A DNA stretch of 64,000 bases from Escherichia coli (GTDB lineage Bacteria; Pseudomonadota; Gammaproteobacteria; Enterobacterales; Enterobacteriaceae): the NCBI RefSeq assembly GCF_003334385.1, contig NZ_QOWN01000013.1; one strand, written 5' to 3'. Positions 1-45,495 of this stretch are shown piece by piece. The stretch's first letter is position 1. Each line of letters opens with the position of its first letter. The position numbers and the translations under genes are program-made. The notes under the pieces were generated by a model. It was not told where the DNA came from. It worked only from the letters and a program-made list of their open reading frames with translations, and did not search any database.

Positions 1-182
1 CAGAACGGCTATTCCATTCGAAGGTGAGCGCCATAATGCACTTGATGACGCCCGTTACCAGGCAAAATACGTTTCAGCTATCTGGCAAAAACTGATCCCA
101 AATCAGGCTGATTTTTAATGTTCAACCCCGGTCGTTGCCCACCAGCTATAGTGGCGGCGACCATGATTAGCGAACGACGCTC

Positions 183-431
183 ATGGCAAGACTTATTCTG
201 CTCACTGAGTGGGCAAAAGAGGAATTCAGTGAACCGGTCCCTACTCCGAGTACGTTAAGTAAATACGCTAAAGCCGGAATGATATTTCCTCTCCCCAAAA
301 AAGTTGGAAGACGCTGGCGAGTGGATCCGCAAGCTCGCTTTGTCGGAATGGTAAACAAGCCGGAGGTGATCGCCACAGATCACCCTGCTTTGAAGAGGAT
401 ACTGGAAGATGGCGCGCCCGCGAAAATATAA
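183..431 (+). CDS. Excisionase-like small DNA-binding protein (Xis family)
   Basis: 82-aa ORF directly upstream of and overlapping the integrase start. It is basic, with an LTEWA...IFPLPKKVGRRW motif resembling lambda Xis (LTLQEW...IFPPPVKDGRE). Confidence 0.55.
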   Translation: MARLILLTEWAKEEFSEPVPTPSTLSKYAKAGMIFPLPKKVGRRWRVDPQARFVGMVNKPEVIATDHPALKRILEDGAPAKI

Positions 432-1539
432 AACCGATGTTCCGGGATTATCTCCGTATTTTGACAAAAGAAATAACAAAGTTTACTGGCGTTACAGGCA
501 TCCCATAACAGGCAAAAATCACGGTCTCGGCAGTATTGACCAGAAACTGGCAGAAACTATTGCAGCAGAAGCGAACAGCCGTCTTGCCCGGCAGCAAATG
601 GAACAAATGCTCAGTCTGCAGGAGAAAATTATTAGTGATACCGGCGGTTCATCAACCGTTACCATTTTTCTGAATAATTACAGAAAAATTCAACAGGAAA
701 GATATGAAAACGGCGAGATCAAACTCAACACGCTGAAACAGAAAGCGGCCCCTCTCAGGGTATTTGATGAACGTTTTGGCACCAGACCGTTAGATGCCAT
801 AACCGTAAAAGATGTGGTATCAGTACTGGAAGAGTACAAGGCCAGAGGACATAACAGAATGGGACAAATTTTCAGGAAAGTACTGATCGATGTTTTCCGG
901 GAAGCTCAGCAAACGGGCGATGTCCCGCCAGGCTTTAACCCTGCAGAATCGGCAAAAAAACCGCAGGTGCGGATATCAAGACAGCGACTGACTTTTGATG
1001 AGTGGATGATGATTTATAACGCAGCGGAAAAGAATGGTTACTTTTTACAGCGCGGTATGCTGCTGGCACTGATGACAGGCCAGCGCCTTTCAGATATTTG
1101 CAAAATGCAATTTTCGGATATCCGGGATGGTTATCTTCATGTCGAACAGCAAAAAACAGGAACCCGGATTGCCATCCCTCTGGCTCTGCGTTGCGATAAA
1201 TTAAATCTCACCCTGGATGATGTAGTGTCATCCTGCCGCGATTGCGTTCTTAGTCCGTGGCTATTGCACCACCATCACGCGAAAGGGACAGCTAAGCGCG
1301 GCGGGATGGTTAAGCCAGCAACATTAACCGTTGCATTTAAAAAAGCCCGGGATTCTGTGGATTACAACTGGCGTGCTAATGGCACCCCACCCTCTTTCCA
1401 TGAGCAGAGATCTTTATCAGAGCGATTGTTCAGAGAGCAGGGGGTTGATACCAAAATTTTGCTAGGCCATTCGAATCAAAAAATGACCGATATTTACAAC
1501 GATGTACGCGGTAAGGAGTGGAAAAAACTGGTCATTTGA
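409..1539 (+). CDS. int: Phage-type tyrosine integrase (lambda Int family)
   Basis: 376-aa ORF whose C-terminal catalytic region reads ...GQRLSDICKMQFSDIRDGYLHVEQQKTGTRIAIP...HEQRSLSERLF...LLGHSNQKMTDIYNDVRGKEW, collinear with lambda Int (R-K-H-R-H-Y signature region). Confidence 0.85.
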   Translation: MARPRKYKTDVPGLSPYFDKRNNKVYWRYRHPITGKNHGLGSIDQKLAETIAAEANSRLARQQMEQMLSLQEKIISDTGGSSTVTIFLNNYRKIQQERYENGEIKLNTLKQKAAPLRVFDERFGTRPLDAITVKDVVSVLEEYKARGHNRMGQIFRKVLIDVFREAQQTGDVPPGFNPAESAKKPQVRISRQRLTFDEWMMIYNAAEKNGYFLQRGMLLALMTGQRLSDICKMQFSDIRDGYLHVEQQKTGTRIAIPLALRCDKLNLTLDDVVSSCRDCVLSPWLLHHHHAKGTAKRGGMVKPATLTVAFKKARDSVDYNWRANGTPPSFHEQRSLSERLFREQGVDTKILLGHSNQKMTDIYNDVRGKEWKKLVI

Positions 1540-1545
1540 TGACCA

Positions 1546-1579
1546 GTTTTGCAGAAGAGTTTTGCAGAGGTTTTGCAGA
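1546..1579. repeat. Three direct repeats of GTTTTGCAGA (1546-1555, 1559-1568, 1570-1579) between the int stop and the ompW stop
   Basis: Seen directly in the sequence. Their position next to the int 3' end matches where arm-type Int-binding sites sit in lambda attP (P' arm). Confidence 0.45.
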
Positions 1580-1584
1580 GAAAA

Positions 1585-2238
1585 TTAAAAACGATATCCT
1601 GCCGAGAACATAAACACCCACGGGTCAAGGCGTACATTGTCGCTATAACTGCCTTTAGCCAGTTTACGACCATCAGATTTATACTTCGCGGTGGTATCGA
1701 TATCCATGTACCACACTGACATGTTAACCAACCAGTCACGGTTAATCAGATAATCAACCCCCACCTGCCCGGCAGCTCCCCAGGAATCTTTCAGACTGAG
1801 ATCGGAAAGCCCTGCCTCTTTGCCATGATCGTTAAATCCATTATCAAAGAAGGTGGTGTAGTTAATACCTGCCCCAACGTAAGGACGGAATTTGCTGCTG
1901 GCATCACCAAAATACCACTGCGCCATCAGTGTTGGTGGCAGATGATGAACGGTTGCAATATCGCCGGTCGCCCGGGTGCCGATTTTATGGCGGAACGGCG
2001 TCGCTGCCAGTAATTCCACACCAATGTTGTCGGTCGCCATATAAGTAAACGTAAGGCCCAGTTGCGTGTTATTGGTCACGCTGAATCCACCCAGACTTCC
2101 TAACGTACCACCAGCACCTTCTGTTGGACGTACGGTTGCAGAACCTGCACGCATAAAAAATTCGCCTGCTTCATGCGCAAAGGCACTGCCAGAGAGAAGA
2201 GTTGTTACTGCCAAAGCCGCCACTGTTAACTTTTTCAT
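1585..2238 (-). CDS. ompW: Outer membrane protein W
   Basis: 217-aa ORF with signal peptide MKKLTVAALAVTTLLSGSAFA and OMP C-terminus ...FSAGYRF, in conserved synteny with yciCBA-tonB. Confidence 0.93.
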   Translation of the reverse strand: MKKLTVAALAVTTLLSGSAFAHEAGEFFMRAGSATVRPTEGAGGTLGSLGGFSVTNNTQLGLTFTYMATDNIGVELLAATPFRHKIGTRATGDIATVHHLPPTLMAQWYFGDASSKFRPYVGAGINYTTFFDNGFNDHGKEAGLSDLSLKDSWGAAGQVGVDYLINRDWLVNMSVWYMDIDTTAKYKSDGRKLAKGSYSDNVRLDPWVFMFSAGYRF

Positions 2239-19736: not shown

Positions 19737-20633
19737 ATGCCACTTCTCAATGATCTGCTCGATTTCAGTGACCATCCGCTTATGCCTCCGCCCTCTGCAC
19801 AACTATTTGCAGAACACCTTCCCACCGAGTGGATACAACACTGCCTGACGCTTTCTGCTCATGCGACCGTTCGCCGCCGTCGTTTACCGGGGGACATGGT
19901 TATCTGGATGGTGGTGCAATGAGCCAATTACCGATGTTGTTCGCCGTCTGAACCTGAGCGCGGATGGCGAAGCGGGGATGAACCTGCTGGCCCGCAGCGC
20001 TGTCACCCAGGCGCGTCAGCGCGTGGGGGCCGCCCCAGTGGAATGGCTCTTCCGCCAGACCGCACAGACAGGGGCGCGGAACGTTACCTGAAGGATGACT
20101 GGCACGGCCTGCAACTTTTTGCCATTGATGGCGCACAGTTCAGGACACCTGATAAACCCGAGCTGCGTGAATATTATGGGTCTGCCAACACATCCACTAA
20201 GCGGCAGAACGCCTACCCGGTTATGCGTCTGGTGGCCTTAATGAACCTGGGAAGTCACATTCTGCTGAATGCCGTGACCGCACCTTACCGGCAGAGCGAA
20301 ACTGTGCTGGCCCACTCCATGCTCGCCACCATCCCGGATAACTCTATTACGTTGTTTGATAAACTTTTTTACAGCGAAGACCTGCTGCTGACGCTGAACC
20401 AGAAGGGTTGTAACCGCCACTGGCTACTGCCTGCGTGGAAGAATATCGCATCAGAAATGATAGAACTGGGAAACACGGCGTCACCAGGGACCATCCCGAA
20501 ACGACTGGAGCATCTTCGGGGTGCTCTGGAAGTGGTGTTCATAACAAAACGCCCCCGACCATCAAGGCCGAGGTCGGTTAAGATATCAAAAACCCGTTAT
20601 CCTGTGAAACATAGTGCCGCTCCTCTTAAGTGA
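19737..20633 (+). pseudogene. insZ: IS4-family transposase remnant split across frames (insZ/ychG-like)
   Basis: Three consecutive ORFs in frames 0/1/0 (19737-19922, 19861-20091, 20043-20633) resemble collinear parts of the IS4 transposase (...VRRRRLPGDMVIWMV...; ...LFAIDGAQFRTPD...). No intact transposase and no terminal inverted repeats identified. Confidence 0.7.
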
Positions 20634-44889: not shown

Positions 44890-44959
44890 GAAAGAGAAAC
44901 CCCCCGCACGTTGAGAGGTAAAACCTGACAACAAAACGGGGGCTAATCTTGAAACCAGA
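44890..44959 (-). ncRNA. rdl: Rdl antisense RNA (type I antitoxin), copy 1; coordinates approximate
   Basis: Minus-strand sequence GUCUGGUUUCAAGAUUAGCCCCCGUUUUGUUGUCAGG...CGUGCGGGGGGUUUCUCUUU ends in a hairpin plus U-run and has a TTGTAA-17-TATTCT promoter upstream. Matches my recollection of Rdl RNA. Confidence 0.5.
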
Positions 44960-45006
44960 CACTTCAAGAATAGCCGCAAAATGTTGTCATTACAACAAGG
45001 CGGCTA

Positions 45007-45425: not shown

Positions 45426-45495
45426 AAAGAGAAAACCCCCGCACGTTGAGAGGTAAAACCTGACAACAGAACGGGGGCTAATCTTGAAACCAGAC
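45426..45495 (-). ncRNA. rdl: Rdl antisense RNA, copy 2; coordinates approximate
   Basis: Same arrangement as copy 1, with a few substitutions. Confidence 0.5.

Follow-up and report, generated by a model that had tools for sequence, protein, structure and literature searches.

Genes and signals at the integrase end

The DNA analysed here, referred to as the window, is a stretch of 64,000 nucleotides from Escherichia coli, and its first 2238 positions hold the end of an exonuclease gene, xis, int and, on the opposite strand, ompW, together with several shorter elements situated between or inside these genes (Table 1). The xis gene lies immediately upstream of int and overlaps it by 23 nt; int ends with a TGA codon at 1537-1539, and the stop codon of ompW occupies 1585-1587. 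The original prediction described a lambda-type xis-int pair convergent with ompW with 45 bp between both stop codons, and 1540-1584 are exactly 45 bases. The complete exonuclease gene, 2472 nt long, is found in the genomes of VR50 and H3; in the window, its last 38 residues match PHROGs exonuclease families, and the gene end shares 96-98% identity with its counterparts in lambdoid coliphages.

Table 1. Features of positions 1-2238 of the window, with the evidence used for each assignment
Feature	Position	Strand	Evidence
Exonuclease gene, 3' end (Exo VIII-like)	1..118	+	annotation in identical genomes, PHROGs, coliphage identity
xis, excisionase, 82 aa	183..431	+	phrog_629, E 3.7e-35
int, lambda-type tyrosine integrase, 376 aa	409..1539	+	Pfam domains, lambda Int structures
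Terminator-like hairpin, CTGGTCAT-TTG-ATGACCAG	1527..1545	.	folding of both strands, conservation
Three direct repeats of TTTTGCAGA, putative P' arm-type sites	1547..1579 (starts 1547, 1560, 1571)	+	motif search
ompW, 217 aa	1585..2238	-	ORF list, NCBIfam OmpW equivalog
Phage-borne replacement ompW 3' end, stop + 35 codons (TAKYKSDGRKLAKGSYSDNVRLDPWVFMFSAGYRF)	1585..1692	-	divergence from K-12, displaced native copy
Attachment-site common core, GGTATCGATATCCATGTACCACAC	1693..1716	.	sole stretch common to attL/attR/attB
Chromosomal ompW part (5' four fifths), own promoter region beyond 2238	1717..2238	-	identity to K-12

The integrase (Int) can be divided into an N-terminal arm-type DNA-binding domain (Pfam PF09003, Arm-DNA-bind_1, residues 2-71, E 1.6e-21), a central core-binding domain (PF22022, Phage_int_M, E 1.1e-4) and a C-terminal catalytic domain (PF00589, Phage_integrase, E 1.9e-16), and it aligns over its full length with the lambda Int structures 1z1b and 5j0n (E about 1e-55). 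The catalytic set R226, K249, H331, R334, H354 and Y363 is conserved and aligns with R212, K235, H308, R311, H333 and Y342 of lambda. A search of NCBIfam with Int and Xis returned no useful family; Pfam, PHROGs and PDB were the informative sources. With its arm domain, its core-binding and R-K-H-R-H-Y catalytic domains and a cognate xis, Int is a lambda-type (arm-binding) tyrosine integrase, sharing with lambda the three-domain architecture, the catalytic residues and the xis-int overlap, at 36% identity between both proteins. The integrases of e14 and phage 21 are its closest characterised relatives (IntE and the phage 21 Int are about 50% identical to it), and Xis is 38% identical to e14 XisE.

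The convergent stop codons are accompanied by a hairpin which overlaps that of int. Its stem is a perfect 8 bp, or 12 bp if the flanking A and T runs are included: on the + strand A6 precedes it and T4 follows, and on the - strand A4 precedes it and T6 follows. The hairpin is the dominant element in the predicted folds of the two strands, being present in their minimum-energy and centroid structures (z-scores of -2.8 and -3.1), and in isolation it folds with -14.9 and -14.4 kcal/mol. It is also conserved in six other PPompW junctions (the prophage family discussed below), with one stem mismatch in TW11681. A simple promoter and terminator scan flagged nothing between int and ompW, probably because the stem runs into the flanking T run. 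The statement that no terminator is evident between these genes has thus to be corrected, given the terminator-like hairpin found there, which looks like a phage-supplied bidirectional intrinsic terminator whose stronger direction would serve ompW; only four T follow it on the int strand, and some read-through is possible.

An attachment core inside ompW

The attachment core was defined by comparing attL, attR and attB, using the lysogens VR50, O145:H28 132418 and Ecol_656 against K-12. The uninterrupted order ompW-yciE is seen in K-12, with ompW followed by yciE-yciF-yciG, as stated in the original prediction. An identity block of 31 bp (1688-1718) was considered as the core, and was narrowed to 1693-1716 once O145:H28 and Ecol_656 were added. 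The resulting crossover core reads GGTATCGATATCCATGTACCA[C/G]AC in the three lysogens and K-12 attB, contains the inverted repeat GGTA-12 nt-TACC, and is located 108-131 nt inside ompW, upstream of its stop codon, where it encodes VWYMDIDT (codons 175-182 of 217). On these alignments, 1693-1716 are the true prophage/chromosome boundary and the core of attL (B-O-P').

The proposed prophage end was 45 bp away from the stop codon of ompW, with the attachment site within 1540-1600, and an alignment of the int-ompW junction with the K-12 ompW-yciE junction had been suggested as the way to define it. The core falls outside the proposed stretch and inside the ompW coding sequence, and the phage is the source of the 45-bp spacer, the ompW stop codon and the 35 codons before it. 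A boundary in the spacer, with an att overlapping the ompW stop or terminator and ompW being entirely chromosomal, could appeal to two 20-bp blocks identical between phage and K-12 at the extreme 3' end of ompW, from 1583, and to the 121-bp "duplication" annotated in GenBank PPompW records, which begins at the same position. However, 1603-1687 show many substitutions relative to K-12 ompW as well as a 15-nt insertion; in the same lysogen, the copy beside yciE stays K-12-like through ...CACACTG, with phage DNA only beyond; and 1693-1716 are the only stretch common to the three lysogens. The annotated 121-bp duplication itself, the "att" of these records, turned out to be diverged, and is neither an exact repeat nor an exact core (81% identity to E. 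coli ompW; PMC8112680). We consider a boundary in the spacer extremely unlikely.

From the core onwards, ompW equals that of K-12 in the aligned stretches (to about position 1790), and the encoded protein is identical to K-12 OmpW (PDB 2mhl, 2f1t) through DIDTTA, with differences only beyond. On the other side of the core, 1585-1692 diverge from K-12 ompW and carry 15 extra nt, lengthening a loop by five residues, so that OmpW has 217 aa in the window vs. 212 in K-12. The hybrid protein is nevertheless encoded by an intact ORF, and scores 394 bits against the NCBIfam OmpW equivalog over its whole length. The native ompW 3' end is found at the opposite prophage end, adjoining yciE, as an annotated pseudogene fragment. 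Taken together, the sequence comparisons show 1585-1692 to be phage DNA rebuilding the ompW reading frame.

Alternatively, the divergent 3' end could be a variant chromosomal allele, or the product of homologous recombination, rather than a phage-carried cassette. In favor of this explanation, the displaced native fragment of Ecol_656 encodes EVKYKSNGAVLPAGRYSDN, equal in length to the loop of the window and similar in pattern. On the other hand, the cassette on the int side differs from the displaced native fragment in each lysogen examined, and the same cassette accompanies the same int in unrelated hosts (O157, O145, UTI89). In no genome does a window-type cassette lie beside the yciE intergenic region (best full-length match, 89.9%). 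Furthermore, the cassette is included in the GenBank PPompW records, whose att ends were checked by their authors against sequenced attP circles. A chimeric query joining the yciE intergenic region to a window-type tail, which is blind to lineages lacking yciEFG, detected no prophage-free carrier of the cassette in 5426 genomes. A chromosomal origin is thus rated as very unlikely, and the phage-borne origin is retained.

Between the cassette and int, the three copies of TTTTGCAGA are the only ones in the 64-kb window, and the array was also reported by Tandem Repeats Finder. Three divergent phages have a fourth copy in their other arm, at a distance of 145-146 bp from the start of the core; it is exact in two of them and has one mismatch in O145. 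This 3 + 1 distribution over both arms is conserved across phage variants, and the repeats are maintained while the neighboring ompW cassette diverges; one O157 strain has four copies. On sequence and position, they are probably arm-type binding sites of Int in the P' arm. The three tandem copies occupy the place just downstream of int where lambda has P'1-P'3, and the remaining copy is on the opposite arm; the lambda arm consensus differs from the motif of the window. The distance of the repeats from the core, 113-146 bp, exceeds that of the arm sites of lambda, because the ompW tail sits between. No match to the IHF consensus was found in the P' arm of the window at zero or one mismatch, and the search of the arms gave one match, in a single phage variant.

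The prophage body and its known relatives

The insertion is absent from K-12, and its body had been predicted to lie upstream of the window. This is supported by H3, VR50 and other genomes that match the window at 100% identity over 25 kb, where a lambdoid prophage of 41.6-50.9 kb extends upstream and ends at the displaced ompW 3' fragment beside yciE. Its genes include those for replication, Q antiterminator, holin, lysozyme, terminase, portal, capsid, head and tail; structural and lysis genes and the second att junction, and not core genes alone, are thus present upstream in these identical genomes. H3 has lost tail genes and has neither the tape measure nor the J gene; in VR50, the tape measure gene is frameshifted. 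The int-ompW junction is far from universal, being present in 1720 of 5426 complete E. coli genomes (about 32%), and is at least 99% identical to that of the window in about 110 of the 1720.

The suggested comparison of Int with phage proteins led to the integrases of the O145:H28 PPompWs, with 99.5% protein identity and 100% coverage. PPompW is the name given to the lambda-like prophage integrated in ompW, reported in 44% of 767 complete genomes (Nakamura et al., 2021, PLoS Pathog, PMC8112680). In that work, membership was defined by an integrase >90% identical over >90% of its length to that of O145:H28 PPompW, a range into which the Int of the window falls. The split ompW locus is likewise found, with attL in the window and attR in the identical genomes VR50 and H3, and the lambda-like gene content is read in these same two genomes. 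Positions 1-1600 have 99.3% DNA identity to the GenBank "Enterobacteria phage PPompW_*" records, which annotate intE, xisE and an insertion-caused duplication. The PPompW phages (LC567822 and related) have the same integrase, xis, exonuclease, target gene, core and lambda-like early region as the window, and differ in the ompW tail: the window has a minority form with 15 extra nt and the loop AKYKSDGRKLAKGSYSDN, and O145, O157 and UTI89 have AKYKSGVTTVKDS. Copies from STEC and EPEC also carry T3SS effector loci and a 21-bp internal attB, none of which appears in the annotation listings of VR50 or H3. PPompW is thus an ordinary, known element, already described, named, deposited and surveyed, and few intragenic prophage hotspots of E. 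coli are better known than ompW.

The int-xis pair could also be ascribed to a non-phage integrative island or to an ancestral fixed remnant, considering that no more than int, xis and an exonuclease gene end falls within the window, and that defective copies are what the closest genomes carry. Nonetheless, genes for replication, Q antiterminator, lysis, terminase, portal, capsid and tail lie upstream in the identical genomes, and the junction is missing from about 68% of E. coli genomes; we concede only the slightest chance to this reading. We hold with high confidence that 1-1692 are the int-proximal end of a lambda-like temperate or defective PPompW prophage, with the attL core at 1693-1716 and a phage-borne ompW tail.

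In the proposed mechanism, a lambda-family Int would recombine the attP of the phage with the roughly 24-bp core inside ompW, at the codons for VWYMDIDT. The ompW 3' end carried on the P' arm of attP is a diverged version, and integration consequently does not inactivate ompW: the chromosomal 5' part is fused in frame to the phage tail, with its 35 codons and own stop, followed by a 38-nt 3' UTR and the phage hairpin as predicted terminator. The native ompW 3' end is displaced about 42-51 kb away, beside yciE, as a dead fragment. The three TTTTGCAGA repeats between cassette and int, and the fourth in the P arm, would be probable sites for the N-terminal domain of Int, driving excision together with Xis. 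In O145:H28, the attP of the circles formed by PPompWs after mitomycin C was confirmed by PCR and sequencing, and PPompWs are generally packaging-defective, with excision but no packaging reported (PMC8112680). Excision and circularisation are known from these phages. Judged on the closest genomes and the literature, the full set of properties of an active phage (complete morphogenesis genes, excision and particles) is not found, and the prophage may be a grounded rather than a live phage.

The same strategy has been adopted by phage 21 and e14, whose integration at the 3' end of icd duplicates that end (Bobay et al., PMC3603311). In both cases, the phage enters a protein-coding gene within its 3' portion and supplies a substitute end that preserves the ORF, and the original end persists as a pseudogene at the opposite junction (icdC in K-12); the intragenic crossover, restored ORF and displaced native end that characterize this type are all found at ompW. 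Unlike in the window, the target gene is icd, with a different core sequence, and the int of e14 does not adjoin the junction. The icd substitute 3' end is largely synonymous, whereas the ompW tail of the window alters the protein, with a different and longer surface loop. In lambda, attB is intergenic, between gal and bio.

Boundary annotation and the OmpW surface loop

The practical value of this analysis is the corrected boundary, with the prophage edge inside ompW. If the boundary is put after the ompW stop codon, annotation pipelines and readers will count 108 nt of phage DNA as chromosomal, and the 217-aa OmpW is misread as a chromosomal allele.

At least three phage-borne forms of the OmpW loop are found, AKYKSDGRKLAKGSYSDN, AKYKSGVTTVKDS and ASYKSNGTPVKDA, besides the native K-12 form ANYKLGGAQQHDS, and all variation of the cassette lies between the last two beta-strands (within the last 35 OmpW residues). 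By the topology of the eight-stranded barrel (PDB 2f1t, 2mhl; PMC2649078), the variable loop would correspond to extracellular loop 4; a single-sequence AlphaFold2 model of the 217-aa protein gave a pLDDT of 28. OmpW is a known receptor for colicin S4 (PMC2649078), for the T-even phage RB68 (bioRxiv 10.64898/2026.04.02.716166) and, in conjugation, for TraN-alpha of F-like plasmids (bioRxiv 10.1101/2023.02.09.527952). Nothing on loop conversion emerged when the literature was searched for prophage-associated OmpW alleles or variants. We tentatively suggest, as a possibility we regard as rather doubtful, that the polymorphism of the PPompW cassette is a lysogenic conversion by 3'-end replacement, able to alter susceptibility to colicin, phage or conjugation. 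If true, lysogenisation would rewrite a surface loop of the receptor protein OmpW, and PPompW-dependent versions of this exposed loop are the one lead worth pursuing.

Position of the prophage end within ompW

The original prediction described a lambda-type xis-int pair convergent with ompW and a 45-bp gap between the stop codons, and both the gene identities and the gap were borne out by the sequence, the ORF list and the domain matches: exactly 45 bases (1540-1584) separate the int and ompW stop codons, and xis and int overlap by 23 nt in the ORF list. Int (376 aa) contains all three lambda integrase domains (Arm-DNA-bind_1, Phage_int_M and Phage_integrase in Pfam), matches crystal structures of lambda Int over its full length (E about 1e-55), and retains its complete catalytic set (6/6: R226, K249, H331, R334, H354, Y363).

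Features of the int-ompW junction (window positions)
Feature	Position	Size or layout	Evidence or remark
3' end of exonuclease gene	ends at 118	118 nt	ORF list; putative exonuclease in PPompW records
xis, excisionase	183-431	82 codons	phrog_629, E 3.7e-35
int, lambda-type integrase	409-1539	376 codons	Pfam domains and lambda Int structures
Perfect hairpin	1527-1545	CTGGTCAT-TTG-ATGACCAG	overlaps int stop codon
Direct repeats of TTTTGCAGA	starts 1547, 1560, 1571	three copies	
Substitute ompW 3' end	1585-1692	35 codons and stop	in frame with chromosomal part
ompW	1585-2238	217 codons, strand opposite int	NCBIfam equivalog, 394 bits

The boundary was first traced by aligning the int-side junction of the window (attL) with the yciE-side junction (attR) of the complete genome VR50 and the uninterrupted K-12 locus (attB), where yciE, yciF and yciG come after ompW, as the original prediction had stated. 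Read from yciE, the VR50 junction resembles K-12 across the ompW 3' end up to ...GTACCACACTG, and phage DNA starts only after this point; in the window, phage DNA runs from int through the ompW stop and 100 nt more, and K-12 identity starts at GCGGTGGTATCG... The addition of both ends of one O145:H28 PPompW (the lambda-like prophage in ompW) and both ends of that of Ecol_656 narrowed the core to the only stretch that all the attL, attR and attB sequences compared have in common, GGTATCGATATCCATGTACCA[C/G]AC, at 1693-1716. These 24 bp encode OmpW VWYMDIDT (codons 175-182 of 217) and contain a short inverted repeat, GGTA-12 nt-TACC. Judging from these alignments, the crossover must fall within this core, so the prophage end is placed 108-131 nt inside ompW, and not 45 bp beyond its stop codon; the attachment site, likewise, does not lie at 1540-1600, where it had been expected. 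A 121-bp “duplication” in database records (window 1583-1703), with 81% identity to E. coli ompW according to the record authors (PMC8112680), was rejected as an exact repeat, being a diverged duplication.

The prophage and its distribution

GenBank records named “Enterobacteria phage PPompW_*” are 99.3% identical to window 1-1600, and are annotated with intE, xisE, a putative exonuclease and a “duplication due to insertion”. They originate from Nakamura et al. (2021; PLoS Pathog, PMC8112680), who described a lambda-like prophage integrated into ompW, confirmed its att sequences from sequenced attP circles after mitomycin C, and, in a set of 767 complete E. coli genomes, found it in 44%, generally as a defective copy. 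Like icd, ompW had been described as an intragenic integration site, among the most occupied hotspots (Bobay et al., 2013; PMC3603311). The original prediction had also considered whether the int-ompW junction might be universal in E. coli: it occurs in 1720 of 5426 complete genomes (1706 with a longer query), a share that makes it frequent but nowhere near universal. It is an ordinary feature, described before this analysis.

Over its first 25 kb the window matches several complete genomes at 100% identity; H3 and SW070917 rank highest and VR50 follows closely. Upstream of window position 1, VR50 and H3 carry an exonuclease, dicB, repressor-type regulators, replication genes and rusA, together with a Q antiterminator, tRNAs, holin, lysozyme, terminase, portal, capsid and tail genes; the predicted lambda-type prophage, with its body upstream of the window and missing from K-12, is supported by these phage genes and by the K-12 locus. 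At its far end in both genomes, a 126-bp pseudogene (“OmpW family, missing N-terminus”) adjoins yciE-yciF-yciG-trpA, and from core to core the VR50 prophage spans 50.9 kb and that of H3 41.6 kb. The tape measure gene is frameshifted in the VR50 copy, and the H3 copy lacks the tape measure, J and neighbouring tail genes; therefore, the copy behind the window is likely defective as well.

Several other loci of the window were recorded. The tyrT locus (27427-28649) holds three tRNA-Tyr(GTA) genes (27437, 27731, 28025) and five RtT elements, laid out as 294-bp and 178-bp tandem repeats; in the otherwise near-identical VR50 genome two tRNA-Tyr and five RtT are annotated, arranged differently, so the difference is one of copy number, produced by unequal recombination. 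Two rdlD antitoxin RNAs (44895-44960 and 45430-45495, - strand) belong to ldr/rdl type I toxin-antitoxin repeats, and three Ldr toxin genes are annotated at this locus in VR50, so this is a further tandem difference in copy number. Between adhE and tdk (about 19737-20633) lies a frameshifted IS4-family transposase pseudogene, according to the VR50 annotation; K-12 has a similar remnant, insZ. Within the ompW-yciC intergenic region (about 2478-2567), the RefSeq annotations of VR50 and KCJ3K291 place a fragment of 90 nt labelled “YkgJ family cysteine cluster protein”; another intra-prophage attB has been traced to the ykgJ-ecpE region (Nakamura et al., PMC8112680).

Putative terminator and arm-type sites

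From int to the core, the phage arm comprises the hairpin, the direct repeats and the substitute ompW 3' end. No terminator had seemed evident between the convergent genes, and folding of both strands revealed a terminator-like hairpin at 1527-1545, which is the main structure in the minimum-energy and the centroid fold of each (z-scores -2.8 and -3.1) and reaches about -14.5 kcal/mol in isolation. Six A precede and four T follow it on the + strand, and four A precede and six T follow it on the ompW strand; it looks like a putative bidirectional intrinsic terminator, more favourable to ompW than to int, and it stands in place of the GC-rich hairpin that natively separates ompW from yciE. Some read-through of int into ompW antisense may occur.

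TTTTGCAGA occurs nowhere in the 64-kb window but in these three repeats, which were kept in every junction sampled. Three phages that otherwise diverge have a fourth copy in the opposite arm, 145-146 bp from the start of the core; it matches exactly in VR50 and Ecol_656, and with one mismatch in O145. In lambda, three tandem arm sites adjoin int and further sites lie in the other arm. Because Int has an arm-binding domain, and given this lambda site layout, the repeats are most likely candidate arm-type Int sites. The O157:H7 3-5-1 junction (L010 about 400-460) has four copies instead of three, by a 13-bp tandem duplication in the int-adjoining arm.

The replaced OmpW tail

The hybrid OmpW equals K-12 OmpW (PDB 2mhl, 2f1t) as far as ...DIDTTA, after which it reads KYKSDGRKLAKGSYSDN versus NYKLGGAQQHDS in K-12, with the last strand VRLDPWVFMFSAGYRF conserved in both; it has 217 aa versus 212, five residues more. 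Periplasmic termini are the usual OMP topology and, assuming them, the changed segment, which joins the last two barrel strands, should be extracellular loop 4 by barrel topology. Single-sequence structure prediction gave a pLDDT of 28, and the assignment rests instead on topology, the barrel being eight-stranded (PMC2649078).

The loop differs among PPompW copies, being AKYKSGVTTVKDS in the O145, O157, UTI89 and Ecol_656 junctions and ASYKSNGTPVKDA in that of TW11681. The cassette (the phage-borne 3' end) of the window is a minority form, about 110 of 1720 junctions being at least 99% identical to it, and a collection search found in no genome a window-type cassette adjoining the yciE intergenic region without phage. 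The displaced ompW fragment of Ecol_656 carries a comparably long native loop, EVKYKSNGAVLPAGRYSDN, which suggests that phage cassettes may derive from host alleles. In this genome (NZ_CP018979; L015 3550-4547), whose native OmpW has the long loop, the displaced fragment is directly followed by trpA, yciE-yciF-yciG being absent, and ompW homology in the PPompW P arm (phage DNA flanking the core) runs a few bases past the core. A second, unrelated route to ompW tail replacement is found in the prophage-free KCJ3K291 (NZ_CP054407; L013 1222-3060), where an IS5-like ISKpn26 in the ompW 3' part leaves an 81-nt ompW fragment adjoining yciE and a 588-nt ompW ORF with a new end.

The window Int shares 36% identity with lambda Int and about 50% with each of e14 IntE and phage 21 Int, and Xis shares 38% with e14 XisE. 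In the textbook case, e14 and phage 21 integrate in the icd 3' end, supplying a replacement end of their own and displacing the native one as a pseudogene, icdC (PMC3603311); PPompW follows the same strategy at another target. OmpW is a receptor for colicin S4 (PMC2649078), for phage RB68 (bioRxiv 10.64898/2026.04.02.716166) and for TraN-alpha of F-like plasmids, where one loop-3 residue already shifts specificity (bioRxiv 10.1101/2023.02.09.527952). A single lead has some novelty: PPompW variants bring differing versions of an exposed OmpW loop, and a phenotype could possibly follow from such a swap.
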